From Candidatus Woesearchaeota archaeon (GTDB lineage: Archaea > Nanobdellota > Nanobdellia > Pacearchaeales > GW2011-AR1): a stretch of 64,000 nucleotides of DNA. This document shows, piece after piece, positions 7,025 through 34,435 of the stretch. Positions within the stretch are counted from its first letter, which is position 1. Each line of letters opens with the position of its first letter. Made by a program: the position numbers and the translations under genes. The stretch covers positions 7,483 through 71,482 of the forward strand of contig CAYIHY010000001.1 of assembly GCA_964363345.1 (NCBI GenBank). Reading direction: 5' to 3'. Under the pieces are notes generated by a model, which saw nothing but the letters and a program-made list of their open reading frames with translations, ran no database searches and was not told the origin of the DNA.

Positions 7025-8206
7025 CTATAAACTTTTCTGTTTAGAGTTTTCCCATTCTTTTAAAAGTTCAGAACTTGAGCGTATTTTTCCTCCGCCCACG
7101 TTAAAAATCACCTGACATCCTATTTTTTTACAAGCTTCAATTTCCTTTTCGGAAAATTGACTTAAACTGATCACATCCCCCCCTTTAGCGATAATATTTG
7201 GTTTTATTTTTAATATAACCTCACTAATCTCGGTTTTATCACTTTCTAAGGTTACGACTTCATCTACACAGTTTAATTCTTCAATTATTGCCTTTCTATC
7301 TTCTGCAGGCATAAATACTTTGCCCTTCTTATTCCGGATATAACTATCCCCATCTATAACTACAATTAATTTACCCCCAAGTTTTTTTGCTTCTTTAAAA
7401 TGGGTTAAATGCCCTAAATGGAGAGGGTCAAATCCCCCACTAACCATAATAATTTTATCTTCCTTTTTTTGTCCGATTAAAATCATATTCCAATCTTTTT
7501 CACTTAGTTCTTTATTTATTTCGAAAGAAGGACATTGTTGAATTAATTCTATTCCTTCATCTTCGGCATACTTCCTTAATTCTTGAGGAAAGAAAAATCT
7601 TACTTTATGTTTTTCTTCATAACTATCAATTAAATTTCCATCCTCAAAAACACTGATGTCAAATCTGATATCTACAGAATGATGCGCGTAATCTATAATA
7701 GGAAAACTTTTTCTAACAATTTTTAATCTTTCAACTTCCATAATTTTTTCCCGAGAAGAAGGGGGTTCATGAATCACCCCCAGACCATTCCAGCAGTCAA
7801 TTAGGAGCAATCCATTTTCATTCAAATGTTTTCTGGCAGTCTTAAAGAAATTTTCTATTTGTTTATTTTCAGTTAAATATCCTATCGCCGAAAACATGCA
7901 AATTATACAATCAAATTTTTCATTTATATCAAAATTAGACATGTCCCCCACAAGAAAATTCATGCCTGGATTCTTCTCTTTTGCTATTTGAATCATCTTT
8001 GGAGAAAGATCCAACCCAGTAATGTTATATCCTCTCTTTGCTAATTCTGCATCATGGATTCCGGTTCCACAGCCCAGATCCAAAATTTTTTTAATCGGTA
8101 AAACAGATTTTTTAAAAACCCCATCTAAAAAATCACATTCTTTACTATAATCCTTTCCCCGATTAAATAAATCATAATACTCTGCATAATTTTTATTGAA
8201 ACTCAT
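7025..8206 (-). CDS. Fusion protein: class I SAM-dependent methyltransferase (N-term) + cytidylyltransferase-like nucleotidyltransferase (C-term, RfaE-II/TagD-like)
   Basis: N-term LDLGCGTGIHDAELAKRGYNITGLDLSPKMI (SAM motif I); C-term IIMVSGGFDPLHLGHLTHFKEAKKLGGKLIVVIDGDSY (the (H/T)xGH motif of the cytidylyltransferase family). Confidence 0.65.
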   Translation of the reverse strand: MSFNKNYAEYYDLFNRGKDYSKECDFLDGVFKKSVLPIKKILDLGCGTGIHDAELAKRGYNITGLDLSPKMIQIAKEKNPGMNFLVGDMSNFDINEKFDCIICMFSAIGYLTENKQIENFFKTARKHLNENGLLLIDCWNGLGVIHEPPSSREKIMEVERLKIVRKSFPIIDYAHHSVDIRFDISVFEDGNLIDSYEEKHKVRFFFPQELRKYAEDEGIELIQQCPSFEINKELSEKDWNMILIGQKKEDKIIMVSGGFDPLHLGHLTHFKEAKKLGGKLIVVIDGDSYIRNKKGKVFMPAEDRKAIIEELNCVDEVVTLESDKTEISEVILKIKPNIIAKGGDVISLSQFSEKEIEACKKIGCQVIFNVGGGKIRSSSELLKEWENSKQKSL

Positions 8207-9365: not shown

Positions 9366-11162
9366 TTATTCTTTTGATTTAATTGCTGCCCTTATAATTT
9401 TTTCTTCCAAGTCTTTCCATTTAGGATCATCAGTTAAGTTATACAATGCTTCTGAAGTCGCAAATAAATTAGCTAATGTAACAAAATTTCTTGATAATTC
9501 TGATTTCTTAGTAATCTCTCTAAGTTTTTCAACTGCTTTTGGTAAATGTAAAAGGGCCTCAATTGAAGCGGTGCGCATTAAAGAATCATTTACTAAAGTT
9601 ATCTCTGGATGAGGAAAGATTATATTTAATTTTGGAACAACTATCTCTTCGCCGATATAATCGTAACCTGATTGTTTATTGTGAAACATTACTTTATCCT
9701 TGAATAATTCCTGCTGATAGGGGAATGTTCTTTTTACTTCATAAATTCCATCCCCCCAAATATCTGTTCCCGGGAGAGGAGTTAAAAATAAAGTTGCAGC
9801 TCCGTCGACATTCATTTCCCCGATATTATAACAGATGCCTAAGGCACTTTCATAAAAAGTTTCTGCGGTTGTAGCAGGAGTATATAAAATATAATTTTCT
9901 GCAGCCTTAAGTCCGTTATCTACAATAATCTTAATTGCTTCTGAATTTTTTTCAGGAGAAGTTTTTTTCCTCATATATTCTAATTCTTTAAGAGAATAAC
10001 TCTCAGAACCTACAGATACCACTTCAAATCCCGCTTCTTTTAAGAGTCTGCATATATCTGGATTTGATACAATATTGTCTGTCCTTGCTCTGCATTGAAA
10101 TTTTAAATTTTTTCTTATCTTACCAGATTTTTTTCTTTCTATAATCATTCCTAGAGTTTCTATCGCCCTTTGGGGATGAACAAGAAAATTTTCATCATCG
10201 ATATAAATGTCCATTGCAGGATATGTAGTCGAAACAGCTTCAATTATCGTCAATATATTTTCTGCATTGATATAACGCACAGGAGAAGTCTTAGTTCCCA
10301 TTGTTCCAGAAAAAAGTATAGAACTCTGGCAGAAAATGCATTTGTATGGGCAATGGTCGCTCGAAACAAAACGAAAATAACTATCTTTTTTTCCGCCAAA
10401 TATCAATCTGCTGAGTTCCCAATATTTCCCGATTGGAGAAAGATCCAAATGTTTTGCAAAGGCATTAAGGCTTATCTCTTGATAAAATTCTGGACTTATT
10501 CTTTCTTTGACAATTGCCAAAGGTTTAGTTTGATTCTCTTCTAAAATAGACATCCCTGAAATTTCATTTATTTTAGTTTCTTCTTTCAAATAATCTAAAA
10601 ATTTTTTCTTTTCTATTTTTTTGTTATTAGAAAATTTATCATAAATCTGAATTAATTTTTGCAAGGGTAATTCCCCCTCCCCCCGAATAATTATATCAAT
10701 TAAACCCCCAAGTTTCCCCCATTGAGGATTAAGTGAGGCTTCAAATCCCCCCGCAATTATAATTGATTCTGGAGAAATCTCAAGAACATGATTTATATTT
10801 TCTAAATCTCGACGCATACTATCATAATATGGACTAAACGCTATAAAGGGGGGATGATATTTGTCGATTCCTTCCCATAATTTTTTGAGATTATCCACAT
10901 CGCAATTGAACATGACTGATTTAATTCCCATTTCCTGCAAAAATGCATGTATTCTAAAAAGACCGTTATGAAGATTTGGAATAAAATAGGGGTCATTGTC
11001 GGTTCTTTTTCCCATATCGGGGGTGATTAAAATTATTTCAGTGTCTGATTCTATTTTTGTATCATACTGAACTAAACTCTCTGGGACATTATAATTTTCT
11101 TTAATCCCTCCGCTGCCCATATCCACAGAGATATGTAAATTTTTTTGGACTGATTCTTCCAT
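9366..11162 (-). CDS. Cobalamin-binding radical SAM protein (class B-like)
   Basis: 598 aa; CxxxCxxC motif DHCPYKCIFCQSS; N-terminal Rossmann-like B12-binding-type region; C-terminal extension. Confidence 0.65.
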   Translation of the reverse strand: MEESVQKNLHISVDMGSGGIKENYNVPESLVQYDTKIESDTEIILITPDMGKRTDNDPYFIPNLHNGLFRIHAFLQEMGIKSVMFNCDVDNLKKLWEGIDKYHPPFIAFSPYYDSMRRDLENINHVLEISPESIIIAGGFEASLNPQWGKLGGLIDIIIRGEGELPLQKLIQIYDKFSNNKKIEKKKFLDYLKEETKINEISGMSILEENQTKPLAIVKERISPEFYQEISLNAFAKHLDLSPIGKYWELSRLIFGGKKDSYFRFVSSDHCPYKCIFCQSSILFSGTMGTKTSPVRYINAENILTIIEAVSTTYPAMDIYIDDENFLVHPQRAIETLGMIIERKKSGKIRKNLKFQCRARTDNIVSNPDICRLLKEAGFEVVSVGSESYSLKELEYMRKKTSPEKNSEAIKIIVDNGLKAAENYILYTPATTAETFYESALGICYNIGEMNVDGAATLFLTPLPGTDIWGDGIYEVKRTFPYQQELFKDKVMFHNKQSGYDYIGEEIVVPKLNIIFPHPEITLVNDSLMRTASIEALLHLPKAVEKLREITKKSELSRNFVTLANLFATSEALYNLTDDPKWKDLEEKIIRAAIKSKE

Positions 11163-12187: not shown

Positions 12188-12217
12188 TTCTAACTTTATT
12201 AATAAATATTGGCGACC

Positions 12218-12901
12218 ATGAAAAAAAGAGCAAAATTTGATATAAAAAAATGTTGTTATAAGGAGAACACGGTATATTTAGCTAAAATAGCTGATCCTTA
12301 CACTGCAAAAATAGCACAATTTGTCTACAATACTTTCGGAATCTCTGCTAATATGATGACTTTGATAACTTTCTTAATAGGTATCGCGAGTCTATCAGTT
12401 TTATTTTTTGTAAGAAGTTATACGGGGTTAATTCTCGCAGCAATTCTCATTTTTATAAGAAATTTAACTGATACTCTTGACGGTAAAATTGCAAGAGGTA
12501 CAGGAAAAACAAGTTCAATGGGGGGATTTAGCGATATAGTCAGTGATTGGGTTTTTTTCCATGCTGCATTTTTTGTAATAATTGGCTATTTGACTAATAA
12601 TATTATCATTGGATTTTTATGTGTAACTGGATATATGAGCAGAGAATTTACAAGAAGAAAATTCACAGAAAAATATGGAGTCAAAATAACTGAAACCTCT
12701 GAAGCAAAAAAAATGCCATTCCTTGTTTCAATTGTAAGGAAATATAATCTCGGAGAAGTTACAATCCTTTCTCCATTGATAATTTTAATTAACCCCGTAT
12801 GGATAATTTATTTTGTGGCCTTTATGGAATATTTCCTTTTATTTGCAGAACTTGCATTTGATTACCTCTGCTTTTTCAAGGAAGAGAAAAATAAAAAATA
12901 G
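12218..12901 (+). CDS. CDP-alcohol phosphatidyltransferase family membrane protein (the track starts at a TTG at 12209; the ATG at 12218 is the more likely start)
   Basis: The motif DTLDGKIARGTGKTSSMGGFSDIVSD fits D-G-x2-A-R-x8-G-x3-D-x3-D; several TM helices. Confidence 0.65.
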   Translation: MKKRAKFDIKKCCYKENTVYLAKIADPYTAKIAQFVYNTFGISANMMTLITFLIGIASLSVLFFVRSYTGLILAAILIFIRNLTDTLDGKIARGTGKTSSMGGFSDIVSDWVFFHAAFFVIIGYLTNNIIIGFLCVTGYMSREFTRRKFTEKYGVKITETSEAKKMPFLVSIVRKYNLGEVTILSPLIILINPVWIIYFVAFMEYFLLFAELAFDYLCFFKEEKNKK

Positions 12902-12949
12902 CTATCTTTACTAAGAAAATTTTATAAATCAATTTCTGGAGGTTATAAA

Positions 12950-13687
12950 ATGAAAGCATTAATTCTTGCAGCAGGAGTTGGAAAAAGATTGCATCCTTTT
13001 ACAGAAGACATCCCAAAATGCCTATTAAAAGTTGGTGAAAAAAGCATATTAGAACATTTGTTGGACAGCATCTCTTCTTCGAAAATTAAAGAGGTAATAT
13101 TAGTTGTTGGATTTAAGAAAGAATTAATATACAAAAAAATTGGAGATTCTTATCAGGGGATGATTATAAACTATGCAACAAATAACTTTTTTGACCAGAC
13201 AAATAATCTATATTCTTTATGGTGCGCTCGACACTTAATTGATGACGCATTTGTCCAATTTAATGGGGATTTAATTGTAAACAGGGAAATAATTAAAAAA
13301 GTTTTCAATTCTCATTTAGAAGATGCAGTTGTAATTGACAGCAGCCCAAATAATTTTGTAGAAGACGCAAATCGAATAAGACTTGAAAAGGGCAGGGTTA
13401 TTTTGTTAAACAAAACAATTTCTAAAGAAGAATCTGCAGGGAGAGCATTTGGAATTTATAAATTTTCTAAAGAGAATGCACAGGAATATTGTAAATCTAT
13501 AGAATTAAATATCTATAAATTTAAAGATGGTTTTGAAACTGGATTAAGACCTTTACTGGGAAATTTTTTTTTCCAGATAATTGATATAAATGGATTACCT
13601 TATGCTGAAATCGATGATATGAATGATTTAGACTCCGCGAGAAAAAAAATTGATTATATAATAAATTATGGAAATTTTAAATCTTGA
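12950..13687 (+). CDS. Sugar/alcohol-phosphate nucleotidyltransferase (NTP_transferase family; IPCT/LicC-like cytidylyltransferase candidate)
   Basis: MKALILAAGVGKRLHPFTEDIPKCLL is the G-x-G-x-R-L signature of small nucleotidyltransferases; 245 aa. Confidence 0.7.
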   Translation: MKALILAAGVGKRLHPFTEDIPKCLLKVGEKSILEHLLDSISSSKIKEVILVVGFKKELIYKKIGDSYQGMIINYATNNFFDQTNNLYSLWCARHLIDDAFVQFNGDLIVNREIIKKVFNSHLEDAVVIDSSPNNFVEDANRIRLEKGRVILLNKTISKEESAGRAFGIYKFSKENAQEYCKSIELNIYKFKDGFETGLRPLLGNFFFQIIDINGLPYAEIDDMNDLDSARKKIDYIINYGNFKS

Positions 13688-15002
13688 AGAAATAGGAACC
13701 ACCCCCCTAAGAAGAAGTGCCTTAGAAATATTGGCTGCAGGGGTTGAAAGTGTTATGCCCGAAAGAGTATTATCCCAATATGTTAATTATATTGACGGAA
13801 AATTAAAAATTAAAAATGATGAATTTGAAATTGGTGATGTCTATGTTCTTGGTTGCGGCAAAGCTGTGGGATTAATGGCCTATGCTCTAGAAAAAATTAT
13901 TCCCTTAGAAAAAATAAAAGCAGGAATAGTTAATTCAATAAAAAATTTTCCAACAAAAAAGATTATAATCAATGTAGCAAATCATCCAATTCCCGACGAG
14001 AGGGGGCTTTATGGGGTTGAAAAAATGTTAGAACTAATTAAACAGATAAAACCCGAAGATACAGTAATCGGTTTATTTTCTGGAGGGGGTTCTGCTTTGC
14101 TTCCTGATCTTCCCCCCGGAATTGAATTGGGGGATATACAAAGATTAACTGAATTATTTATTAAATCAGGAGCAGAAACTTATGAAATGAACATTGTTCG
14201 GAAACATGTCTCTACATTAAAAGGAGGAAATCTTGCGAAAATTTTACAACCTTCCAGAATCATCTCATTAATGATTTCCGATGATTTAGACGGGAGAGAA
14301 GATATCGCTTCAAGGCCGACAACTTATGAAGATTCTACATTTCAAGAGGCATATGATTTGGTGAGAAAATATCATATTCTAGAAAAAATTCCAAAAAATA
14401 TAAGAATTTTCTTGGAAAAGGGATTGAGAAACGAAATTCCCGAAAATCCAAAAAAAGGGGAATCTTTTTTTGAGAATGTTTATAATTATATTTTAGCTGA
14501 CAATAAAACTGCTTTAGAGTCAATGAGAAAAAAAGCAGATTCATTAGGCTTTAATTCCTTTATTTTAGCAGAAACCCTTAAGGGAGAAACAAAAATATCT
14601 GCAAGAAATATGGGAAAACTATTTAGCGAAAAATATTCTTTAACAAAAACTCCTTTAGCTATTTTATATTCTGCGGAAACAATTGTTAAAGTTAAAGGAA
14701 ATGGAAAGGGGGGAAGAGCTCAGGAATTTACCGCTTCATTAATTCCGGAAATATCCGGGAAAAAAAATTCAGTTTTTGCTGCAATTGGTTCCGATGGAAT
14801 AGATTTTATTCCAGGAATTGGAGGAGCAATAATTGATGATACTACTCTTAGTCAATGTGCTGAAAAAGGATTAGAACTACCTAAATTTTTAAAAGAAAAT
14901 GATACCTATAATTTACATAAATATTTGGGGAATTTAATCCTAATGAATTCAACAAATACCAATGTGGGAGATTTGCATGTTTATCTTCAAAAAGATTATT
15001 AA
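13668..15002 (+). CDS. MOFRL-family kinase (glycerate 2-kinase-like, GckA/TtuD family)
   Basis: VLGCGKAVGLMAYALEKI (the GxGKA motif) and LFSGGGSALLPDLPPG (the SGGGSALL motif) are both characteristic of MOFRL glycerate kinases; 20-nt overlap with the upstream gene. Confidence 0.55.
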   Translation: MEILNLEEIGTTPLRRSALEILAAGVESVMPERVLSQYVNYIDGKLKIKNDEFEIGDVYVLGCGKAVGLMAYALEKIIPLEKIKAGIVNSIKNFPTKKIIINVANHPIPDERGLYGVEKMLELIKQIKPEDTVIGLFSGGGSALLPDLPPGIELGDIQRLTELFIKSGAETYEMNIVRKHVSTLKGGNLAKILQPSRIISLMISDDLDGREDIASRPTTYEDSTFQEAYDLVRKYHILEKIPKNIRIFLEKGLRNEIPENPKKGESFFENVYNYILADNKTALESMRKKADSLGFNSFILAETLKGETKISARNMGKLFSEKYSLTKTPLAILYSAETIVKVKGNGKGGRAQEFTASLIPEISGKKNSVFAAIGSDGIDFIPGIGGAIIDDTTLSQCAEKGLELPKFLKENDTYNLHKYLGNLILMNSTNTNVGDLHVYLQKDY

Positions 15003-15010
15003 AAATAAAA

Positions 15011-15772
15011 ATGGAAAATGTTAAATTTAATTTTGAAGGAAAAACAGTTGTAATAACTGGAGCATCCAGAGGAATCGGGTTGGCAATAGCAAACGCATTT
15101 TTAGAAAGTGGCGCATCAGTGATAAATATCTCAAAATCTAACTCAGAAGTAAATTTAGAAAAACCTAATTATATTTTCTTGCAGGAAGATATCTCTAATC
15201 TCCCCTCAATTGAAAAATGGATAAATGAATTCTACAACAGGGGCAAGAAAATAGATTTTTGGATAAACAATGCAGGAATTTATTTTGGTTCACCGCTGAT
15301 TAATGTCTCTGAAGAACATTGGGATGAAATTTTTTCTGTAAATTTAAAATCTCTTTTTTTCCTTTCTAAATTTGTTGCACAACACATGAAAGAAAATGGG
15401 GGGGGAATAATTCTAAATGCTTCTTCTTTTGCTGCAAAAATTCCTTCAATTAATCGAGGGATATATGCGGCTTCTAAATCTGCAGTGGTGAGCTTAACAA
15501 GATCTATGGCCGCCGAATGGGCCCAATATAAAATCAGGGTAAATAGTTATTGCCCCGGAGTTATCTTAACAGATATGACTAAAGATTTAACTGAGAAAAA
15601 AAATGATGAATTAATTTCAAATATAGCCTTGCATCGATATGGTTCCCCCGAAGAAGTTGCAAAGGTTATTCTATTCCTTTGCTCCGACTCTTCGGAGTAC
15701 ATCACAGGAGAAATAATAGAAATAAGTGGAGGAAAATTTCTTGTGCAAAACCAGAAAGACATCATCTTATGA
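15011..15772 (+). CDS. Short-chain dehydrogenase/reductase (classical SDR)
   Basis: VVITGASRGIGLAIANAF (TGxxxGxG); NNAG; YAASKSAV (YxxxK). Confidence 0.85.
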   Translation: MENVKFNFEGKTVVITGASRGIGLAIANAFLESGASVINISKSNSEVNLEKPNYIFLQEDISNLPSIEKWINEFYNRGKKIDFWINNAGIYFGSPLINVSEEHWDEIFSVNLKSLFFLSKFVAQHMKENGGGIILNASSFAAKIPSINRGIYAASKSAVVSLTRSMAAEWAQYKIRVNSYCPGVILTDMTKDLTEKKNDELISNIALHRYGSPEEVAKVILFLCSDSSEYITGEIIEISGGKFLVQNQKDIIL

Positions 15773-17349
15773 TAAAAACTATTTCTACCTCTTATAGTAA
15801 AGAAGATACCATTGATTTTATAATTGAAGATGATGCTGAATTTGATTGGGTTTCAAAATTTGATGATTCTAAATTTGATCGTCTTTTTGTAGTTGTAGAT
15901 AAAAATGTAAATAAATTATGGGGGGATAAGATTTTTTCTCAGTTAAAAAAACATAATAAAGAGATATTTTTATTTGATGTAGAAGCAATCGAAGAGAGTA
16001 AGTCGATAAATTTTTACCCAAAATTAATAGATTTTTTTGAATCTAATCGATGTGGATTATCTGATCTGGTAATTGGTATAGGGGGGGGAATAATAATCGA
16101 TTTAGTAACCTTTACCTGTTCAACATATATGAGAGGACTCCCAGTTTATCTAATTGCAACTACTTTAATCGGACAGATTGATGCTTCAAGCGCAGGCAAG
16201 ACTTGTTTAAATACCCAAAATGCAAAAAATGTTTTGGGAACATTTTATTATCCATTAAAAGTATATAATAATATTAATTTTTTAAAAACATGTTCAGATT
16301 ATCACGCACGCCAGGGCTGGTCCGAGATTTTTAAATACGGGCTTTTGGATTCTAAAGAATTATTGGATATGATTTCGGATTATTTTAAAAATAAGACTGA
16401 TAAAAAATTAATGGATATAATTGAATCCGCGATTAGCGTAAGAATTAAAATAAGAAATAAAAATCCTTTAGCAAGCAATTTAGGGCATACCTTTGGACAT
16501 GCCATAGAAAAAATATCAAACTTTAAAATTCTCCATGGAGATGCTATAGCCGTCGGAACAATCATCTCATTATATTTTTCTAAAAAAATAGGAATAATTG
16601 AAGAAGAAGAATTAAATGAGATAGTTTTAAGGATGAAAGAACTAAATTTGAATATTCTTTTAGACAAAGAGATAGAACCCAATTTAATGGTTGAATTAAT
16701 GATGCATGATAAAAAATCTTCAAGTAAGAATCTCAATCTTGTTTTAATAAAAGGAATTGCTAAACCCTACGAAGAGAAGGGATATTATTTCTACAAAACA
16801 AATCCCGAATTTGTGAAAGAATTCATCAAAGAGTTTCTTGTATCATATCCGTATACCCTCTCTGAATGTTCAAAAGTCATAACCTCCGATGAAATAAATT
16901 ATAATATCATAACTTCCATAAATCATCTAAGCTTTACTGTAAGTGATGCTGAAAAATCAGCAATATTTTATGAAAAAATATTAGGTTTAAAATTAGTAAA
17001 TATCTCAGAACGAGACCAAGTTTTTTCAGAAAAAGTTACAGGTATAAAAAATGCCCACCTAAAAATAGCCTACTTAAGCGGCAATAACTGTTCCATTGAA
17101 TTGATCCAATATCTTTCTCCTCAAGGAGAAAAAATAGATACGAAGACATGTAATGTCGGAAGTGCGCATATTTGTTTTAATGTTAAAAATTTTTCAGAAT
17201 TTATTGAAAATTTAAAAAATAAAAATGTTTTTTTTATAAATTCCCCCCAGATAATTCCCGACGGACCAAATAAAGGAAAAATGGTAGTATATTCTGAAGA
17301 CCCTGATTCAAATAAACTGGAATTTATCTCTGAAGAAAGAATAGAGTAG
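15769..17349 (+). CDS. Fusion: 3-dehydroquinate-synthase-like sugar phosphate cyclase (N-term) + VOC/glyoxalase-like domain (C-term)
   Basis: GIGGGIIIDLVTFTCSTYMRGLPVYLIATTLIGQIDASSAGKTCLN and GHTFGHAIEK....HGDAIAVG closely follow DHQS/EEVS/DOIS family motifs. The C-terminal INHLSFTVSDAEKSAIFYEKILGLK ... GSAHICFNV is a VOC module. The probable start ATG at 15769 overlaps the SDR stop (ATGA); the track ORF starts upstream at 15679. Confidence 0.7.
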   Translation: MIKTISTSYSKEDTIDFIIEDDAEFDWVSKFDDSKFDRLFVVVDKNVNKLWGDKIFSQLKKHNKEIFLFDVEAIEESKSINFYPKLIDFFESNRCGLSDLVIGIGGGIIIDLVTFTCSTYMRGLPVYLIATTLIGQIDASSAGKTCLNTQNAKNVLGTFYYPLKVYNNINFLKTCSDYHARQGWSEIFKYGLLDSKELLDMISDYFKNKTDKKLMDIIESAISVRIKIRNKNPLASNLGHTFGHAIEKISNFKILHGDAIAVGTIISLYFSKKIGIIEEEELNEIVLRMKELNLNILLDKEIEPNLMVELMMHDKKSSSKNLNLVLIKGIAKPYEEKGYYFYKTNPEFVKEFIKEFLVSYPYTLSECSKVITSDEINYNIITSINHLSFTVSDAEKSAIFYEKILGLKLVNISERDQVFSEKVTGIKNAHLKIAYLSGNNCSIELIQYLSPQGEKIDTKTCNVGSAHICFNVKNFSEFIENLKNKNVFFINSPQIIPDGPNKGKMVVYSEDPDSNKLEFISEERIE

Positions 17350-17365
17350 CACTGTTACATAATCT

Positions 17366-17375
17366 TTTTAAATAA
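17366..17375 (+). promoter_or_regulatory. Archaeal TATA-like box TTTTTAAATA 19-28 bp upstream of the ATG at 17394
   Basis: Suggests the GAPDH-like gene also has its own internal promoter. Confidence 0.3.
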
Positions 17376-17393
17376 TTTTTTGCAATTTTTTAG

Positions 17394-18431
17394 ATGGTGA
17401 AAAAACAATTCGGTATAAATGGTTTTGGAAGAATTGGCAGAGCAATCTTCAGAAAAGCTTTAGAAAATGGAACTTTTGATATCCCCCTAATAAACGATCT
17501 TAATCCAGATAATAATAATTTAGCTTATCAATTAAAATATGATTCTATTTACGGAACTCTTCCTTTTGAAATAAGGGGAAATGAAAAAGGTATAACAATT
17601 GAGGGAAAACAGTATGAGATTTCTCATGAGAGAGAGATAAATAAAGTTAATTGGAAAAATCTTGAATGTGTTGTTGATTCGTCGGGGGTAAAAGAAAATG
17701 TTGTCCTTGCAAGAAAATTAGTAGAACAAAATGTTAAGTATGTGATTGTAACCCATTCCCCTGAGGAAAAATTATTGGATAGAAGTGTAATAATGGGAGT
17801 TAATGAAAATGAAATTGATTTTAATAAAGATAGAATTATCTCTAGCAGTATCTGTGATGCAACGGCATTTGCTCCAGTAGTGCAACTTCTTGACTCTGCA
17901 TATGGGGTTGAACACGGATTCTTGACGACAATTCATCCTTGGCTTCAGCATCAACATCTTTTAGACGGTCCATCAACTTCTTGGTCAAAACCCGGACAAA
18001 TCTATCCCGGATACGAGGAAGGAAGAGCGAGCACTGTTTCATTATTGCCCAAACCAACTTCCTGTGTTAGTGCCACTTGCAAAGTGATTAAATCTCTTGA
18101 AGGAAAATTTGACTCTTTTTCTTACCGAGCTCCGACGGCAATTGTTTCAACCGCAAATATCAATCTTAAGCTAAATAAAAATCCTTCAAAAGAAGAAATT
18201 ATCTCATTATTCCTTGAAGCAGAAAAAAATCAAAAATGGAAGATATTTTCAAATAATTTCGAACCTTTAGTGTCAATAGATTTTAAAGGAAATGAACATT
18301 CTGTTTCTGTTGACCATAGATGGACCGCGATAAATAAATTTGGTTATGCTCGGTTGGTTCTTTGGTATGATAATGAACAAGGCTATGGGAGCAGAGTTTT
18401 AGATTTAGCTGATTATTTATTATCTCATTAA
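17394..18431 (+). CDS. Type I (bacterial/eukaryotic-type) glyceraldehyde-3-phosphate dehydrogenase-like dehydrogenase with a divergent active-site region
   Basis: FGINGFGRIGR, YDSIYG and LWYDNEQGYGSRVLDL are GAPDH/E4PDH signatures. The catalytic segment is SSICDATAFAP instead of the canonical ASCTTNCLAP. Confidence 0.65.
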   Translation: MVKKQFGINGFGRIGRAIFRKALENGTFDIPLINDLNPDNNNLAYQLKYDSIYGTLPFEIRGNEKGITIEGKQYEISHEREINKVNWKNLECVVDSSGVKENVVLARKLVEQNVKYVIVTHSPEEKLLDRSVIMGVNENEIDFNKDRIISSSICDATAFAPVVQLLDSAYGVEHGFLTTIHPWLQHQHLLDGPSTSWSKPGQIYPGYEEGRASTVSLLPKPTSCVSATCKVIKSLEGKFDSFSYRAPTAIVSTANINLKLNKNPSKEEIISLFLEAEKNQKWKIFSNNFEPLVSIDFKGNEHSVSVDHRWTAINKFGYARLVLWYDNEQGYGSRVLDLADYLLSH

Positions 18432-20296
18432 ATGTAATCATTAATTAAAAAAGAAGGTTTTTTTCTTGAATCATTCTCGAGAAATAATTTTTTCCATAAT
18501 TCTATATTCATCAAAAACAAAAGTTGTCTAAATGAATTATCTTTAGTTTTTCTTTGCTCTTCCATAAAATTTCCTTCTCTAATCTGTCTTATGAGTTTTT
18601 TTATCCGAGGGATATTATAATATTCTTTTTCTAATTCAGAGTTGGAGAAAATTGTTTCAGAAAAATAAAGAAGCTCTTTTTTAAAATATTCTGATAATGG
18701 CGTAACCATTGGCAATTTTTTTCTGTAAACAATCTCTTTTGGGAGTAATGGTAATGCTAATTTTTGGAGAATTATTTTTTTGTCTGCTCCATAAAATTTA
18801 TATTTTGCAGGAATTGTCATGGCAAATTCAACAACATTATGGTCTAAATAAGGAACTCTTACTTCGTGTGAATGAGCCATGCTGTTCTTATCTAGCTTAT
18901 TGCAATGAAAATAAGGAATTTCTGTTTTTAATTCGTAGAGTAGAGCTTTATTTAATTGGCTTCCGTCGTCATTTTTACAATTTTTTATTGTTTTACCAAA
19001 GGTATTCATAACATCAAGATCTTCAGGTATATTCAAAATACTTTTTTTAAAAAATTCTTCCTTGTCTTTGTCAAACACGCTGGAGGAAATATATTCTACT
19101 TTTTCTTTGAAAGGCATATTTATTTTATTTTTTAAATTTTCATAATTTTCTCTATTCAGTTCATTCTTCATTGGGGGAAGTTCAGTATACACATCATATC
19201 GGTTATACCCCCCAAATAATTCATCAGAACCCTCCCCACAAAGACTTACTTTTACACTTTTGCTTATGCCTTTGTATAAATCATATACCGAAACCATTGC
19301 AGGTCTGGAAAATGGAAATTCCATATGCCATAATGTTTTAATTAAATCCGTAACATAATCTTTTGAACTTAAATGCAACTCGGTGTGATCTGTCTGACAG
19401 TGTTCTGCAACCAACCTTGCAGCAGAATATTCATCTTCCGGAATATCAAATCCCGCAGTAAAAGTTTTTATCGATTCTTTAAATTTACTTGCTAAAGCAA
19501 CTATAACACTGGAATCAATTCCTCCAGACAAAGAAATTCCAACTGGAACGTCACTTATTAACATTCTTTTTACAGAAGAAGAAAGGAGCTCACTCAATTT
19601 TTTTATATAAAATTGTTCATTATTGCAAGTTTCATTTGATTCCAAATTCCAATATCTAAAAGAATCTATTTTATCGTCTTTTAGCACCATATAATGTGCA
19701 GGTTCCAACTGAAAGATTTTTTCTATTAATGTTTCTCCTCTAATTGGGTACTCATAGTAAACAATTTGTTTAAGGCAATTTTCATTCAAATCTCTTTTTA
19801 CTTCATCGGAGGCTAAAATAGATTTTATTTCTGATGCAAATATAAATTTAGAATCTTTGTAATAATAATAAAGAGGTTTTATCCCCATCCGATCTCTAGC
19901 TAAAAATAATATTTTTTTATTTGAATCCCAAATTGCAAATGCAAACATTCCATTAAACAAGTTCAAGCAATCAAATCCATATTCTTCATAAGCGTGGATG
20001 ATTACTTCCGTATCTGAACCTGAGTTAAACCTATGCCCCCTTTTTTCAAGTTCAGGCTTAATCTCCTGAAAATTATATATCTCTCCATTAAAAGCTATAA
20101 TAATGCTTCCGTCTTCATTAGACATAGGCTGTTTTCCCCTCTCACTCAAATCAATTATGCTTAATCTTTTATGCCCGAAAGAGACTGATTTATCCACATA
20201 ATATCCATCTTGGTCAGGGCCCCTATGAGAAATTGAACGAGCCATCTTTTTTATAAGTTCTTCATCCCCCCAGTTAAAACCACATATTCCACACAT
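18428..20296 (-). CDS. Asparagine synthetase B-type glutamine amidotransferase (a WbpS-like sugar amidotransferase is possible)
   Basis: N-terminal MCGICGF (Ntn Cys2); PP-loop SLSGGIDSS; 622 aa. Confidence 0.85.
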   Translation of the reverse strand: MCGICGFNWGDEELIKKMARSISHRGPDQDGYYVDKSVSFGHKRLSIIDLSERGKQPMSNEDGSIIIAFNGEIYNFQEIKPELEKRGHRFNSGSDTEVIIHAYEEYGFDCLNLFNGMFAFAIWDSNKKILFLARDRMGIKPLYYYYKDSKFIFASEIKSILASDEVKRDLNENCLKQIVYYEYPIRGETLIEKIFQLEPAHYMVLKDDKIDSFRYWNLESNETCNNEQFYIKKLSELLSSSVKRMLISDVPVGISLSGGIDSSVIVALASKFKESIKTFTAGFDIPEDEYSAARLVAEHCQTDHTELHLSSKDYVTDLIKTLWHMEFPFSRPAMVSVYDLYKGISKSVKVSLCGEGSDELFGGYNRYDVYTELPPMKNELNRENYENLKNKINMPFKEKVEYISSSVFDKDKEEFFKKSILNIPEDLDVMNTFGKTIKNCKNDDGSQLNKALLYELKTEIPYFHCNKLDKNSMAHSHEVRVPYLDHNVVEFAMTIPAKYKFYGADKKIILQKLALPLLPKEIVYRKKLPMVTPLSEYFKKELLYFSETIFSNSELEKEYYNIPRIKKLIRQIREGNFMEEQRKTKDNSFRQLLFLMNIELWKKLFLENDSRKKPSFLINDYI

Positions 20297-21061: not shown

Positions 21062-23683
21062 TTAATATCTAATGTTTGTTGTTTTAGTTATTTTGTTAAA
21101 TACTTCTTCTCCTTTTTCTTTTCCAAGTCTATCTATTACACAATCATGATATCTAGCCATTGACAACATTTTACTCGTCTCGGAATTAAAATCAGTTTCT
21201 AAAGCCGCTCTTAACCATTTTTCATCGATAGGATTTTCTGTTAAATAATTTTTCCCTTCATTTGACAAAGCGTCCATCCACCTTTCATCAAGTTCTCCTT
21301 TTACATATAATGTTCCGAACTTGCAGATATTCCTTAATCTATTTTCTATCTCTTTAGGAAAACTAATCCCCCCAATTCCTGTATTTGTATCTCCAGAACA
21401 ACTATCATTAATTTGAAATCCTCTTTCCTTTGCTGTTTGTTCCACGTGGGTGTGGGGATAAATTTGCAAAGGGTAAAGAGAAATAATACTTCCTTTTCCA
21501 ATTCTTTTCATTCCTTCTAAGGTTTCTAGAGCATCTTCAACAGGATCAGATATCGGAAGTCCGACAATTGCCTGTAAATTAACCAGATAGCCAAATGAAA
21601 CGAGTCTATCATAAGCCTTTTTTATTTGTTCTTCATTATCCCATTGCCGATTAAATAATTTTAATGATTCTGAACGTATTGCCTGAACTCCAAGCCCGAC
21701 GCAATTAACTATATTTCTTAATTTTTTTAATATTTCATCTGAAGCTTTCAAAACGCTAACCGAAGTTGTTGAAACATACATGGGGATATTTATTTCTTTT
21801 TTCCAAACATCAACAAATTCAGAGAGCCATTCTTCTGCATTTTTACCGGCAAACAAATCATCGTCTACCCATTCAATATCATCAGTGGGATATTTTTTTA
21901 TTATCTTTGCTTCTTCTATAACTGTTTTAATATCCCTTCTTCCCAAAAAATAATTTGCCTGGGCATCATTTCCAAACAATTCTCTTCGATGCAAACTTGA
22001 AGAACTGCAGTAAGTACAAGCATAAGGACATCCAAGCATAGAGAGTATAACTTTCCTGTAACGCTGTCCCATTCTAGGAATATCTTCATAACATTTTTCT
22101 CTTGCGGGCATTGGTAAATCATTTGGATTTCCAGGGATTGTTGTGATTATCCCCCTTTCTCCGTTAAGAAATCTTTCAACTGAGCCATTAACAGGTCCGC
22201 GAACAACAACATCAACATTATTTAACTTTGAGATATCTGGAGAAGCAGTTGCATGGTGTCCCCCGAAAATAGAAATTATTCTAGGATTTTTCTCTTTAAT
22301 TTGATTTAAAATTCCGTACGCCTGCGGGAAAAAAGTAGTCATAGGAGAAAATAAAACATAATCCGGATTCCAATTTAAAATTTTTTCAGCAACTTTTTCA
22401 TCTCCTTCTGCATCAAAGAATTTTATTTCCTGATTAAATTTTTGTAACTCTCCCCCAACATAATATAAACCATATGACTCTTCATTACCAAAACATACCA
22501 ATGCGTGCTTCATTTTACTGCTTACTTTAGACAAAGTTTTTTGTTCATAAAATTCTTTTATTTTAGCGCAGACGTACTTAACATCTTTTTTGCTTACTGC
22601 AGGATTAATTGGCAAATAAAGATATCTCTCGTGGAGATAATCCATATTTGGACAAGGGCTCTTAAATTTTTTAAATATCTCAAATAAATCATTACGTAAG
22701 TGAATCATATTAACATCAACACCATTATTCAGAAGAAATTCTGCCAATTCATCTCTATATTCAGACAAAATTCCAAATAACCAATAAGAACCTCCAGCGA
22801 TAGGAATTACTTCTCTCGGTAATTCTTTTAGATAATCTAATGCTAAAGATTTCCTATACTCCATAATTAAATCTAAATAAGGAAGTGATGCTAATCCAAA
22901 ACAAGCATCAATGTCTGTCGGCTGATATTTATACCCCGCCTCTTCAATATCAAAAGTCATTTCTCTCCGTTCCCATGCCTGATAATTTTTTTTAGCTTTT
23001 AATTCTCTATCAATACCAAACCATCGCAATAATTTAGCCCTATCATAATCTTTTTTATTTTTTAAAACAAGTATTCCCCCATCGGCAGTAGTAATATGCT
23101 TAATTGCTTGAAGAGAATAACAAATGTAATTCCCCTCTAAATTTTTAGGTACATGGTGTTGTGATGCATCTACTATCACAGGGAGATTTTTTTCTTTAGC
23201 TAATTCAAATATTTTAGGATTTACTTCTATTCCTCCGAGATGAACTGCAACAATCGCCTTTGTCTTTTCAGTTATTTTTTTCCTTGCATCAATTGGGTCT
23301 ATATTTAACGTATCTTTTTCAATGTCTGCAAAAACAATTTGTGCTCCGCGTCTCACAAGCCCCATTTGTCCTGCAGTACAGTCCAAAATAGGCACTATAA
23401 CTTCGTCATCTTTTTTAATGTCTAATAAATGATAAGCAATTTCAAGTGCAGCAGTTCCAGAATTCATAAATAAAACATATTCATATCCAAATTTTTTAGC
23501 GAATTCTTTTTCAAATTTTTCTACTTTCGGACCCTGCCCCAACCATCTTCCCTCTAATGTTTCTTCTATTTCCTTTAATATCTCCTGTTTTGGAATAAAC
23601 GGCCAGAAAAGAGGAATCTTTGATTTTTTTGTATCCTGAAAAATTTCTTTCAGAGTTTTATCTTCGTCAATCTCTTTTATCAT
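21062..23683 (-). CDS. Tri-domain fusion: DegT-like PLP aminotransferase (N-term) + B12-binding domain + radical SAM domain (C-term)
   Basis: N-term LFMNSGTAALEIAYHLLDIKKDDEVIVPILD (DegT fold); middle ALVCFGNEESYGLYYVGG (Rossmann/B12-type); CxxxCxxC at MLGCPYACTYCSSS; 873 aa. Confidence 0.7.
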   Translation of the reverse strand: MIKEIDEDKTLKEIFQDTKKSKIPLFWPFIPKQEILKEIEETLEGRWLGQGPKVEKFEKEFAKKFGYEYVLFMNSGTAALEIAYHLLDIKKDDEVIVPILDCTAGQMGLVRRGAQIVFADIEKDTLNIDPIDARKKITEKTKAIVAVHLGGIEVNPKIFELAKEKNLPVIVDASQHHVPKNLEGNYICYSLQAIKHITTADGGILVLKNKKDYDRAKLLRWFGIDRELKAKKNYQAWERREMTFDIEEAGYKYQPTDIDACFGLASLPYLDLIMEYRKSLALDYLKELPREVIPIAGGSYWLFGILSEYRDELAEFLLNNGVDVNMIHLRNDLFEIFKKFKSPCPNMDYLHERYLYLPINPAVSKKDVKYVCAKIKEFYEQKTLSKVSSKMKHALVCFGNEESYGLYYVGGELQKFNQEIKFFDAEGDEKVAEKILNWNPDYVLFSPMTTFFPQAYGILNQIKEKNPRIISIFGGHHATASPDISKLNNVDVVVRGPVNGSVERFLNGERGIITTIPGNPNDLPMPAREKCYEDIPRMGQRYRKVILSMLGCPYACTYCSSSSLHRRELFGNDAQANYFLGRRDIKTVIEEAKIIKKYPTDDIEWVDDDLFAGKNAEEWLSEFVDVWKKEINIPMYVSTTSVSVLKASDEILKKLRNIVNCVGLGVQAIRSESLKLFNRQWDNEEQIKKAYDRLVSFGYLVNLQAIVGLPISDPVEDALETLEGMKRIGKGSIISLYPLQIYPHTHVEQTAKERGFQINDSCSGDTNTGIGGISFPKEIENRLRNICKFGTLYVKGELDERWMDALSNEGKNYLTENPIDEKWLRAALETDFNSETSKMLSMARYHDCVIDRLGKEKGEEVFNKITKTTNIRY

Positions 23684-30987: not shown

Positions 30988-32190
30988 ATGAAAATTGCCC
31001 ACGTAAATATGTTTTTTCTTCCAACATTCGGCGGAGTTGAACAGGTGATATATGAATTAGCCACAAGGCAGGTTAAAGATGGACACGAAGTTCATGTTTT
31101 TTGCTGCGATTCTGACAAAAATAACAGAATAGAAATTAAAGAAGAAATAATTGAAGGAATCCACGTTCACCGAATACCTTATTGGTTCAGACTTTCTTTG
31201 AATACTTTTGTATGGCTGTCATTCTTATGGAAATTTAAGGGGAAATTTGATATTGTTCACAGCCACGTTTCAGGGCATGATTACATTTTATTTGCCGGAT
31301 GGTTATCTAAACTGAAAGGAGCAAAATATATCCACACAACACATTGCCCGTGGACAGATGCTTCATTCAGGCCGAAAATTATTCGCCCATTTTTATTTTT
31401 GAATGATATTTTCATGAACAAATTTTCGTACAAATTTATTGATAAAATAATTGCAATCACCCCCTGGGAATTGGAAACTTTGGAAAAATATTCAGAAAAA
31501 GAAAAAATTGAAATTATCCCAAATGGAGTCGATAAAATTTTATTTAAAGAAGTTAGAAATAAGCAGTTCAAAAAAAATAATAATATCAAAGAAAAATTTT
31601 TGGTTTTATTTTTCGGAAGATTGAATCCGACAAAAGGTCCGGAGATGCTTGCTAAAGCAGCAATAAATATAATAAAAAAAAGAAAAGACATCGCATTTGT
31701 CTGGGTTGGTCCCGATGAAGGAAAAGCCGAGGAAGTTAAGGAATTAATTAAGAATTTTAAAAATATGAAATATCTCGGTCCGATAAAAGGAAAAGAAAAA
31801 ATTGCAGATATGTATCAATCTGCTGATGTTTATGTTCTTCCAAGTTATCGCGAAGGATTGCCCTTAACTTTATTTGAAGCAATGGCCTCGAGACTTCCTA
31901 TCGTTGCTTCGCCTGTCAACGGAGTGCCCTTTGAAATGAAAGAAAATGAAAACGGCTTTTTTTCAAATTACGGAGACATTGATTCTCTGGAAAAAAATAT
32001 AATTAAATTAATTGATAACCCAAAACTTGCAAAAAAAATCTCAGAAAATAACTTTAAAAAATCAAAAAATTATAACTGGGATGACATATACAAAAAATAC
32101 ATGAATGAATATAAAAAACTTTTAATCAGCCGTGAGCAGTATATCAGCGGGAAAATGAGTGTAAAGAAACCGGAGGTGTCGTTCAGGTGA
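30988..32190 (+). CDS. Glycosyltransferase, GT4 family (GT-B)
   Basis: C-terminal EGLPLTLFEAMASRLPIVAS (the EX7E region); 400 aa. Confidence 0.75.
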   Translation: MKIAHVNMFFLPTFGGVEQVIYELATRQVKDGHEVHVFCCDSDKNNRIEIKEEIIEGIHVHRIPYWFRLSLNTFVWLSFLWKFKGKFDIVHSHVSGHDYILFAGWLSKLKGAKYIHTTHCPWTDASFRPKIIRPFLFLNDIFMNKFSYKFIDKIIAITPWELETLEKYSEKEKIEIIPNGVDKILFKEVRNKQFKKNNNIKEKFLVLFFGRLNPTKGPEMLAKAAINIIKKRKDIAFVWVGPDEGKAEEVKELIKNFKNMKYLGPIKGKEKIADMYQSADVYVLPSYREGLPLTLFEAMASRLPIVASPVNGVPFEMKENENGFFSNYGDIDSLEKNIIKLIDNPKLAKKISENNFKKSKNYNWDDIYKKYMNEYKKLLISREQYISGKMSVKKPEVSFR

Positions 32191-33725: not shown

Positions 33726-34435
33726 TTAGCTAATCTAAAATCCTTCATATTTTCTTTATAATCGGTAGGATCTTTTACATCTGCCCAATAAAATCCTTCT
33801 TGTCTCAATCTGCATGCAAGGCAATAACCGCAGTGTTTTCCACGAATGCTTCTGTGACAACTGAAAGTTTCCTTAAAATTAATTTTTAATTTTTCTCCAA
33901 TTTTTACAATCTCTTCTTTGTCTTTTTTTATCAATGGGGCAATTATTTTAAAGTTCTTGTAACATCCTATTCGGCTTAATTTGTTCATTTGTTCAATAAA
34001 TGCCGGAGTCGTGTCAGGGTAATATTCTTTTCCTTCGTTTTTGAAACCAGTAAATAAATCGTATTTCTCTTTCTTTTTAATATAAAGAGATTCTGCAAGA
34101 GCAAGAGAATAAACAAGAAAAACAATATTTCTGCAGGGGACATATAATCTTTCAGATTCCTTAGAGCTATCCTTTAACTCTTTTCTTGTAACTTTTTTCG
34201 GTTTGTTGTCTAAAGAATTTGTAATATTCCCGAGCCATTTTAAGTCCACTTCAATAAATTCCGCAGAAATGTCATTCGCACACTTTTTAGAACAAGCCCT
34301 TTCCGAAGCAAGACTTTTTTGATTATAATTAAAGAAAACAATTTTGATATACTCATAATTTAACTTTTTTTTGACATAATGCGCAGTTACAACACTATCC
34401 AATCCTCCAGAGCACAATACTATCGCATTTTTCAT
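33722..34435 (-). CDS. QueC-like PP-loop ATPase (7-cyano-7-deazaguanine synthase family)
   Basis: IVLCSGGLDSVV (SGGxDS); YNQK; VPCRNIVFL; a C-terminal zinc cluster CHRSIRGKHCGYCLACRLR that parallels the QueC Cys4 site. Confidence 0.6.
   Translation of the reverse strand: MKNAIVLCSGGLDSVVTAHYVKKKLNYEYIKIVFFNYNQKSLASERACSKKCANDISAEFIEVDLKWLGNITNSLDNKPKKVTRKELKDSSKESERLYVPCRNIVFLVYSLALAESLYIKKKEKYDLFTGFKNEGKEYYPDTTPAFIEQMNKLSRIGCYKNFKIIAPLIKKDKEEIVKIGEKLKINFKETFSCHRSIRGKHCGYCLACRLRQEGFYWADVKDPTDYKENMKDFRLAN

Follow-up and report, generated by a model that had tools for sequence, protein, structure and literature searches.

Enzymes of the 3-dehydroquinate synthase (DHQS) family are textbook cyclases. 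They include AroB (EC 4.2.3.4) of the shikimate pathway; the sedoheptulose-7-phosphate (SH7P) cyclases, among them the 2-epi-5-epi-valiolone synthases (EEVS) ValA and CetA, desmethyl-4-deoxygadusol synthase (DDGS) and EVS, which are accompanied by VOC-fold epimerases (CetB, ValD) and by a downstream kinase and nucleotidyltransferase; and the synthase of 2-deoxy-scyllo-inosose (DOIS), which eliminates phosphate from a sugar phosphate in an NAD+-dependent manner. A DHQS-like gene adjacent to a VOC gene is typical of C7N-cyclitol clusters. Here we describe a DHQS-like domain fused to a VOC domain, encoded by a single open reading frame (ORF; 15769-17349, +) in a 64,000-nucleotide stretch of DNA, hereafter the window, from a Candidatus Woesearchaeota archaeon (assembly GCA_964363345.1, contig CAYIHY010000001.1, positions 7,483 to 71,482 of the forward strand). 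Judged by its sequence, the DHQS-like domain belongs to a separate, well-conserved and previously undescribed clade that is neither AroB nor part of the EEVS/DDGS/DOIS group, and our literature search found no description of this clade or of the gene cassette in which it lies. Building on the observed domain content, residue conservation and cassette conservation, we propose that the operon makes a CDP-activated hydroxy-acid phosphate that decorates a glycan, by way of a DHQS-like lyase that eliminates phosphate without cyclizing and of its VOC partner, a reading to which we give about even chances.

A fused DHQS-like and VOC protein

The fusion protein is 526 residues long. Its reading frame opens with an ATG at 15769, which overlaps the stop codon of an upstream short-chain dehydrogenase/reductase (SDR) gene in an ATGA arrangement, and closes with a stop codon at 17349. 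From the N to the C terminus it consists of a DHQS-type domain, a clade-specific C-terminal extension, a linker of about 20 residues and a complete VOC domain. The DHQS-like part (residues 1-360; 15769..16848, +) has the NAD+/Zn sugar-phosphate-lyase fold, with the extension at roughly residues 320-360, and is matched by the Pfam models DHQ_synthase N (residues 71-178, E 1e-27) and DHQS_C (residues 183-317, E 6e-24). The VOC domain (residues 381-526; 16909..17349, +), of the glyoxalase I/methylmalonyl-CoA-epimerase type, is matched by Pfam Glyoxalase/VOC (PF00903; residues 384-519, E 3e-13, 50.5 bits), and all three matches lie well above their gathering scores. The translation holds GIGGGIIID, ATTLIGQIDASSAGKT, NLGHTFGHAIE and LHGDAIAVG, and both the Pfam domains and these motifs agree with the original prediction, which had recognized the DHQS-like/VOC architecture from the DNA letters. 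An AlphaFold2 model built on 60 aligned sequences (mean predicted local distance difference test score, pLDDT, 90.4; pTM 0.78) folds the C-terminal part into two beta-alpha-beta-beta-beta modules. Low confidence in this model is confined to the inter-domain linker (residues ~361-380, pLDDT 57-58; 16849..16908, +), at the very position where unfused homologues, whose DHQS-like proteins end in ...KY, carry a stop codon and a start codon.

The fusion is not a sequencing artefact, because the same continuous ORF recurs, at 71-79% identity, on independent metagenomic contigs (P0002-P0004). Relatives at a greater distance encode the VOC in a gene of its own that starts 1-10 nt past the DHQS-like stop codon. 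For a wider comparison we collected 42 non-redundant loci from homologue look-ups and a metagenome scan with a clade-specific motif, and mapped them with the window proteins; a scan of genome contigs used the motif NLGHTFGH, which is common to true AroB, such that AroB genes dominated and only one locus, from a Heimdallarchaeote (L009), was informative. Where enough downstream sequence is available, the VOC is fused to the DHQS-like gene or lies directly downstream of it (27 of 33 loci), with fusion itself seen only in the window protein and its close relatives and a separate gene in most loci. Conservation of the pairing in relatives, which had been proposed as a check on the fusion, is therefore present as fusion or direct adjacency, and the VOC is a genuine conserved functional partner of the DHQS-like domain.

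The metal ligands of the VOC domain (His/Glu/His/Glu) are invariant in all 29 cassette VOCs, and the domain thus combines a VOC-type metal site with the paired beta-alpha-beta-beta-beta modules of the model. Since a His/Glu/His/Glu site marks the VOC enzymes that stabilize an enediolate, the domain is probably a metal-dependent isomerase or epimerase acting through such an intermediate. Among solved or curated proteins, those nearest to it are of generic kinds (glyoxalase I, YaeR, FosB and methylmalonyl-CoA epimerase, 30-42 bits), and about 120 stand-alone VOC homologues share 40-71% identity with it. In Candidatus Entotheonella (L138/L139, 9001-9441) and at L136, stand-alone VOCs of about 60% identity lie outside any DHQS-like cassette and adjoin a gene of the acetyl-CoA hydrolase/transferase family (CoA-transferase) and one for an isochorismatase-like hydrolase.

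Family placement and active site of the DHQS-like domain

The best curated match of the DHQS-like domain is the aroB model TIGR01357 (E 6e-71), at 239.5 bits against an equivalog cutoff of 305. TIGR04425 (AroB-related putative sugar phosphate phospholyase, cyclizing) reaches 190.6 bits against a cutoff of 400, and glycerol-1-phosphate dehydrogenase 43.5 bits. Among solved relatives, DHQSs give the best sequence scores (137-101 bits), with DDGS at 104, ValA/EEVS 99 over the N-terminal domain only, and DOIS 71.5, the weakest among the matches listed. By fold these enzymes are indistinguishable in a Foldseek search against the PDB, which returns DHQS, DOIS, EEVS (ValA) and DDGS alike, with TM-scores of 0.75-0.88 relative to solved DHQS chains. 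In a neighbor-joining tree the clade is monophyletic in 98 of 100 bootstraps and apart from the AroB, SH7P-cyclase, DDGS-like and DOIS references; it is placed beside the SH7P-cyclase references, an adjacency without tested support. Clade members from very distant organisms (by source names, Pacearchaeota, Nanoarchaeia, Woesebacteria, Lachnospiraceae and Heimdallarchaeota) share 45-61% identity, and databases currently call the proteins of this group '3-dehydroquinate synthase', 'iron-containing alcohol dehydrogenase' or 'VOC family protein'. A tblastn search of plasmids found no cassette member, the best match having 31% identity, and the cluster look-ups found no cultured organism with the cassette.

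Could the protein simply be a housekeeping AroB that was accidentally fused to a VOC protein? We find this scarcely credible. One might point to aroB being the best family match, to DHQSs being the best solved relatives and to the retention of most DHQS catalytic residues, but the score falls well short of the equivalog cutoff, Arg264 is deleted in every clade member, the clade stands apart from AroB in nearly all bootstraps, and the gene always lies in a glycan cassette and never beside aro genes, none of which occur in the 64 kb window or in the 42 related loci. The carriers from DPANN and the Candidate Phyla Radiation (CPR), moreover, generally lack aromatic amino-acid synthesis. The original prediction had also argued that this is not the housekeeping aroB, and the sub-cutoff TIGR01357 match, the glycan cassette within an AglB/STT3 island and a window free of aro genes uphold that view; its premise that archaea do not use a bacterial-type DHQS is probably an over-generalization.

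The active site was compared in Aspergillus nidulans DHQS numbering, which we take to map onto the clade through shared motifs, with a fingerprint rebuilt from annotated references and residue numbers. References from annotated plasmids (E. coli aroB, two PGAP-named SH7P cyclases, one DOIS and a Nostoc DDGS-like gene) were aligned with clade members in MAFFT, and conservation was counted in 33 clade sequences; the cyclase references are PGAP-named or context-inferred plasmid genes rather than characterized enzymes, the Nostoc gene being identified from its context next to an O-methyltransferase gene. With AroB the clade shares the two-domain NAD+/Zn fold, the NAD motifs, the Zn ligands (Glu194, His271, His287) and the phosphate-binding residues (Arg130, Lys152, Asn162, Asn268, His275 and Lys356). 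Equivalents of Arg130, Asp146, Lys152, Asn162, Glu194, Lys197, His271 and His287 are common to the clade and all references, and within the clade they are invariant together with Asn268 and the DKK motif; in fusion numbering, the invariant residues are Glu186, His240, His256, GGG105-107, Asp111, Arg122, Lys144, Asn154, Asn237 and DKK314-316, while the His275 equivalent (His244) is nearly invariant.

At the positions that discriminate between family members, the clade sides with DHQS: position 268 is Asn, position 275 is His, and the DKK of Lys356 is present. The SH7P-cyclase and DDGS-like references carry instead Met250 (in the SH7P cyclases), Glu/Asp264, Asp/Ala268, Pro275 and no DKK, so that the EEVS/DDGS/EVS fingerprint is absent from the clade, and the DOIS reference has Glu268 (the position of BtrC Glu243) and Gly264, in contrast to an invariant asparagine (Asn237 of the fusion) and a deletion. 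Still, the clade differs from AroB, to which its members are only ~24-31% identical, in several respects. Lys250 of DHQS is replaced by an invariant Arg, and a 5-6 residue deletion takes out the Arg264 loop in all 33 clade sequences, a deletion also present in HMMER alignments to three solved DHQSs and in the MAFFT alignment with E. coli AroB; a complete DAHP-binding set, one that includes Lys250 and Arg264, is thereby missing. In addition the clade has invariant motifs of its own (AGKTCLN, GTFYYP, RQGxSE) and an extra structured C-terminal stretch of about 45 residues, and its genes lie in a glycan cassette rather than in the shikimate pathway. In the A. nidulans DHQS structure, Lys250 and Arg264 bind the DHQS substrate DAHP (3-deoxy-D-arabino-heptulosonate 7-phosphate), the Arg264 loop holding its distal C1 carboxylate end, and loss of this loop fits a substrate shorter than DAHP. 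The original prediction had proposed that a true DHQS signature, in a genome lacking the archaeal ADH/DHQ-II shikimate route, would mark the housekeeping enzyme. What we find is divided: the signature is DHQS-like at Asn268, His275 and DKK, but it is not that of a true DHQS, with the Arg264 loop gone.

The original prediction favored an EEVS-, DDGS- or DOIS-like cyclitol synthase, and positions 250, 264, 268, 275 and 356 do not match the references for such enzymes. In its full form this model would have a sugar phosphate cyclase (EEVS, DDGS, EVS, DOIS or EboD-like) make a C6 or C7 cyclitol that the VOC epimerizes as CetB and ValD do, and that is then reduced, phosphorylated, CDP-activated and transferred as happens with CDP-inositol and DIPPS. 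The DHQS-like/VOC adjacency, the kinase and nucleotidyltransferase in the cassette, the failure of fold searches to separate DHQS, DOIS, ValA and DDGS, and the place of the clade in the tree beside the SH7P-cyclase references would all suit it, as would the cassette's NTP-transferase and CDP-alcohol phosphotransferase, whose best matches are IPCT, DIPPS and archaetidylinositol-phosphate synthase. We nevertheless judge it unlikely, as the discriminating residues are DHQS-like and unlike those of the SH7P-cyclase, DDGS and DOIS references, as solved ValA aligns over one domain only, and as the model has no role for an invariant GAPDH-like aldehyde dehydrogenase and does not explain why two unrelated glycerate-kinase families and a variant with an AMP-forming ligase occur in the cassettes described below. 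The SH7P-cyclase systems further differ in that their kinases are of the ROK/glucokinase type, whereas that of the cassette is a glycerate kinase, and in that the cassette adds the GAPDH-like enzyme and the CDP-alcohol phosphotransferase and is predicted to yield an acyclic acid.

The reaction space of the superfamily would be widened by a large, conserved clade in which the machinery for phosphate elimination is retained and the part of the pocket for the cyclizing end is lost.

A conserved cassette and its predicted product

The fusion lies in a seven-gene operon (12209-18431, +), a gene listing that takes in a convergent AsnB-like gene on the minus strand. The first gene encodes a membrane-bound CDP-alcohol phosphotransferase (12209..12901, likely start ATG 12218, +; Pfam CDP-OH_P_transf, E 1e-12) whose full signature DxxDGxxAR-x8-G-x3-D-x3-D is intact as DTLDGKIARGTGKTSSMGGFSDIVSD; its best NCBIfam matches, archaetidylinositol-phosphate synthase (AIP synthase) and DIPPS, are both far below cutoffs, and it also occurs in related cassettes (L002, L003, L007, L125/L135) and in an unsequenced JGI contig. 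It is followed by a cytidylyltransferase of the LicC/IPCT (COG1213) type (12950..13687, +; Pfam NTP_transferase), named 'phosphocholine cytidylyltransferase family protein' by PGAP, with LicC (CTP:phosphocholine) and IPCT (CTP:inositol-1-phosphate) as best solved relatives, and by a glycerate-2-kinase-like kinase (13668..15002, +; Pfam DUF4147, E 4e-57, and MOFRL, E 5e-24), which scores 164-183 bits with the NCBIfam glycerate 2-kinase models, below their cutoffs. The gene directly upstream of the fusion encodes a classical SDR ketoreductase (15011..15772, +; Pfam adh_short_C2, E 2e-55), nearest to NCBIfam models for reductases of sugar acids and hydroxyketones (glucose 1-dehydrogenase, gluconate 5-dehydrogenase, BudC, KduD).

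Downstream of the fusion is a GAPDH-family dehydrogenase (17394..18431, +; Pfam Gp_dh_N and Gp_dh_C) that stays below the cutoffs for GAPDH-I, erythrose-4-phosphate dehydrogenase (E4P-DH) and TIGR01534. Equivalents of Cys149, His176 and Arg231 are invariant in 23 sequences. At the Pi site Thr150 is invariably Asp and Ser148 is Ile in 22 of the 23, and the S-loop has a 10-residue insertion, with Leu for Thr179 and Glu for Arg195, so that the full set of a phosphorylating GAPDH (Cys149 and His176 together with a Pi site of Ser148, Thr150, Thr208 and Gly209 and a Ps site of Thr179, Arg195 and Arg231) is not present. Retention of the catalytic Cys and His alongside an Asp at the Thr150 position suggests hydrolysis to a free acid, and the enzyme is probably non-phosphorylating, oxidizing an aldehyde to a carboxylic acid. 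The AsnB-type glutamine amidotransferase (18428..20296, -; Pfam Asn_synthase and GATase_7; TIGR01536, 505 bits) is convergent with the operon and flanks the cassette in 8 of the 42 related loci; we speculate that it may be an accessory that amidates the free carboxylate.

The 42 loci lie on DPANN, CPR, Asgard and Lachnospiraceae-type contigs, and across them VOC, GAPDH-like, SDR and NTP-transferase genes accompany the DHQS-like gene. Gene order varies, yet the kinase-side and DHQS-side gene sets stay contiguous across very distant lineages. The kinase is of the MOFRL type or, in about half of the cassettes, a non-homologous class I glycerate kinase (PF02595), of which the one in L007 passes TIGR00045 (215.9 against 168.45 bits). 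In six loci (L095, L100, L109, L110, L114 and L133) an AMP-binding ligase beside the DHQS-like gene replaces kinase, cytidylyltransferase and phosphotransferase, which implies that the same acid is there attached as an acyl group; four of these six have the GAPDH-like gene, and the SDR is present in L100 and L109. A gene of the FAH (fumarylacetoacetate hydrolase-like) family stands between the GAPDH-like gene and VOC in three loci (L096:842-1477, -; L104:6334-6987, +; L122:2110-2721, -), and a His_Phos_1 gene (histidine-phosphatase/phosphoglycerate-mutase-like) lies beside the kinase or GAPDH-like gene in two (L125:5337-5630; L135:1157-1768, -). Six loci lack VOC but keep the DHQS-like gene, and four of these also show the GAPDH-like gene. 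The Heimdallarchaeote locus has GAPDH-like, DHQS-like, SDR and NTP-transferase genes and no VOC; in the kinase position, between SDR and NTP-transferase, it has a 221-residue ORF with only a weak DUF6206 match (L009:5119-5787, -). In the loci most closely related to the window (L001:5591-6196; L002:6136-6741) a P-loop kinase-like gene of 201 residues (AAA_33/Zeta_toxin/KTI12 matches), absent from the window operon, follows the GAPDH-like gene.

How might these enzymes work together? Each chemical step that follows is predicted, and so are the substrate's chain length and which of the first two steps precedes the other. The GAPDH-like enzyme would oxidize an open-chain aldose phosphate to an acid, our best guess being erythrose-4-phosphate to 4-phosphoerythronate. 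The DHQS-like domain, with bound NAD+ and Zn, would then run only the first three steps of DHQS, in which the hydroxyl two carbons from the phosphate is transiently oxidized, phosphate is lost by an E1cB mechanism and the carbonyl is re-reduced, leaving an omega-deoxy keto acid such as 2-hydroxy-3-oxobutanoate from a substrate too short to cyclize. The fused VOC would isomerize or epimerize this labile alpha-hydroxy/beta-keto intermediate through a metal-bound enediolate, and fusion would favor its direct hand-over. Because DHQS-type chemistry leaves a terminal methyl beside a ketone, the SDR could reduce the latter to give a 2,3-dihydroxy acid, for instance 2,3-dihydroxybutanoate ('3-methylglycerate'), whose 2-OH the glycerate-2-kinase homologue would phosphorylate. 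The cytidylyltransferase would convert this phospho-X and CTP to CDP-X, and the CDP-alcohol phosphotransferase would move phospho-X from CDP-X to a hydroxyl of a glycan or lipid-linked acceptor, forming a phosphodiester.

Several features of the cassettes point toward such a product. Three independent ones indicate a glycerate-like 2,3-dihydroxy carboxylic acid: the recruitment of two unrelated glycerate-kinase families, the AMP-forming ligase as alternative activating enzyme in the variant loci, and the GAPDH-family aldehyde dehydrogenase in the core. The MOFRL or PF02595 kinase, together with the phosphoglycerate-mutase-like insert in L125 and L135, likewise argues for a glycerate-like kinase substrate, and the FAH-family inserts (L096, L104, L122) and the intact VOC metal site argue for a keto- or enol-acid intermediate. 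Ordinary glycerate was rejected as product, since DHQS-type chemistry leaves a methyl group, and so was a DIP- or GPI-type pathway for a compatible solute, as the cassette always lies among glycosyltransferases, flippases and AglB. Erythrose-4-phosphate was chosen as the most economical substrate because, like the aldehydes on which GAPDH-family enzymes act, it is obligately open-chain. In the pocket, so short a substrate would chelate Zn through its carboxylate and 2-OH, at the place taken by the C4 and C5 hydroxyls of DAHP, and would lack the part of DAHP that Arg264 grips, which matches the deleted loop.

Precedents for the proposed oxidations are found in pyridoxal phosphate synthesis. E. 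coli Epd, a GAPDH-family enzyme, oxidizes erythrose-4-phosphate to 4-phosphoerythronate without phosphorylation, and PdxB carries out the NAD+-dependent oxidation of 4-phosphoerythronate at C2 to 2-oxo-3-hydroxy-4-phosphobutanoate. The likeness is chemical and does not extend to sequence orthology: with the cassette enzyme, E4P-DH models give lower scores than GAPDH models do and fall far short of their cutoffs. To our knowledge, phosphate elimination after 4-phosphoerythronate has no known counterpart. Taken to its most specific form, in which the DHQS-like enzyme is a 4-phosphoerythronate/erythrose-4-phosphate phospho-lyase that with VOC yields 2,3-dihydroxybutanoate, activated as a new CDP-2,3-dihydroxybutanoate and set as a 'methylglycerate phosphate' phosphodiester (or acyl group) on the N- or surface glycans of DPANN, CPR, Asgard and some Firmicutes, the proposal is tentative and rather doubtful.

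A number of points weigh against the proposal. Erythrose-4-phosphate is preferred as a best guess by chemical reasoning only, as an aldehyde that does not cyclize and with which the pathway works in loci without VOC. Close to the deleted loop are two conserved arginines, Arg225 and Arg229, to which a distal anion could still bind. The GAPDH-like protein has a changed S-loop and Ps site, in which Thr179, Asp181 and Arg195 are not kept, so that it might act on an unphosphorylated substrate; the first two steps would then run in the opposite order. The NTP-transferase and the phosphotransferase are closest to inositol-phosphate enzymes, as would fit a cyclitol, and the VOC subfamily is not exclusive to the cassette pathway, given its homologues outside cassettes. 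A literature search for 2,3-dihydroxybutanoate as a glycan substituent gave no relevant result, and no glycan with such an acid is known to us.

A three-carbon route is also conceivable. Here glycerol phosphate or a triose phosphate would lose its phosphate through the DHQS-like enzyme and become hydroxyacetone or methylglyoxal, which the VOC, in the manner of a glyoxalase I, would convert to lactaldehyde or a lactoyl product; the GAPDH-like enzyme would form lactate, and the latter would be phosphorylated at position 2 and CDP-activated as an analogue of lactyl-diphospho-guanosine, the F420 precursor. In favor of this, it is glyoxalase I models that the VOC domain resembles most, glycerol-1-phosphate dehydrogenase is a member of the DHQS superfamily (with the 43.5-bit match noted above), and nucleotide-activated 2-phospholactate is established in F420 biosynthesis. 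But this route needs the VOC, and the six loci without one keep the DHQS-like gene, most of them with the GAPDH-like gene; it has no need of the conserved SDR, and the phosphoglycerate-mutase-like insert would make no sense for lactate, which has no 3-OH. We regard it as very improbable.

The activation half of the cassette has better described counterparts. CpgD, the Caulobacter CTP:phosphoglycerate cytidylyltransferase of the COG1213 type, makes CDP-glycerate (PMC12275187, PMC13228409), and in this pathway, as with IPCT/DIPPS and LicC, a COG1213-type enzyme CDP-activates a small phospho-alcohol or hydroxy acid and a transferase installs a phosphodiester. Precedents for the decoration are S-layer glycans that bear phosphoglyceric acid (PMC2943079) and the O22 antigen of P. 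alcalifaciens, which carries D-glyceramide 2-phosphate (as cited in PMC6222762). CpgD, however, uses glycolytic 2-phosphoglycerate, whereas the dedicated kinase and four-enzyme upstream module of the cassette imply a non-glycolytic acid, and the acceptor is here probably a glycan, in contrast to ceramide phosphate or inositol phosphate in CpgD/IPCT-type systems.

Given these precedents (PMC12275187, PMC2943079 and, through its citation, PMC6222762), it is also possible that the operon joins two independent modules: kinase, cytidylyltransferase and phosphotransferase would install phosphoglycerate from free glycerate (or glyceramide phosphate, with the AsnB-like enzyme), and DHQS-like/VOC, SDR and GAPDH-like enzymes would make a separately attached product. 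The L007 kinase that passes a glycerate-kinase cutoff, the frequency of AsnB-like neighbors and the occurrence of the DHQS-like/GAPDH-like/SDR trio beside an AMP-ligase without the kinase module are consistent with this. Yet genes of the two sets are intermingled in a single operon, where stop codons overlap start codons, and the sets are contiguous across distant lineages, glycolytic 2-phosphoglycerate as substrate would need no kinase, and in most loci the trio would be left without an activation or transfer enzyme. With genes so interleaved and tightly coupled, two modules are less parsimonious than a single CDP-activated hydroxy-acid phosphate, and we think them improbable.

If the operon does make such a hydroxy-acid phosphate, it probably joins a known superfamily and a known activation logic to a new reaction and product. 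By the erythrose-4-phosphate route, this would be a 2-phospho-hydroxy acid in CDP-activated form, with a mass that exceeds that of CDP-glycerate by 14 Da, and the three database names that clade members now bear would need correction. Genome-reduced DPANN and CPR organisms keep few multi-enzyme biosynthetic pathways. The cassette is among these and lies in their surface-glycan loci, so that its product is probably of importance to the cell surface, possibly for host attachment.

The surrounding surface-glycan island

The window as a whole is an archaeal surface-glycan/N-glycosylation island with many glycosyltransferases and sugar-nucleotide enzymes, and the 64 kb contain no tRNA genes and no Rfam matches. 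It includes genes for a flippase (137-1654), a PMT_2 protein (42351-44084), a GT4 initiating transferase (52826-53851, -) and the STT3/AglB oligosaccharyltransferase (53852-56653, -). At least six B12-binding radical SAM proteins are encoded (9366-11162, -; 21062-23683, -; 32187-33725, +; 45485-46927, -; 46924-48318, -; 50486-51943, -), and six such genes in one glycan locus suggest extensive C-methylation of sugars or similar radical chemistry on them. One of these ORFs, that at 21062-23683, is itself a fusion of 872 residues that combines a DegT-type aminotransferase with the B12-radical-SAM domain. Two further fusions are a 655-residue triple fusion of GT9 (heptosyltransferase-like), cytidylyltransferase-like and NUDIX domains (36838-38805, +) and a 392-residue protein with SAM methyltransferase and cytidylyltransferase-like domains (7025-8206, -). 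Inside the island, QueC (7-cyano-7-deazaguanine synthase) lies near Vut_1, a putative vitamin/queuosine-precursor transporter (33722-34435, -, and 35576-36268, -).

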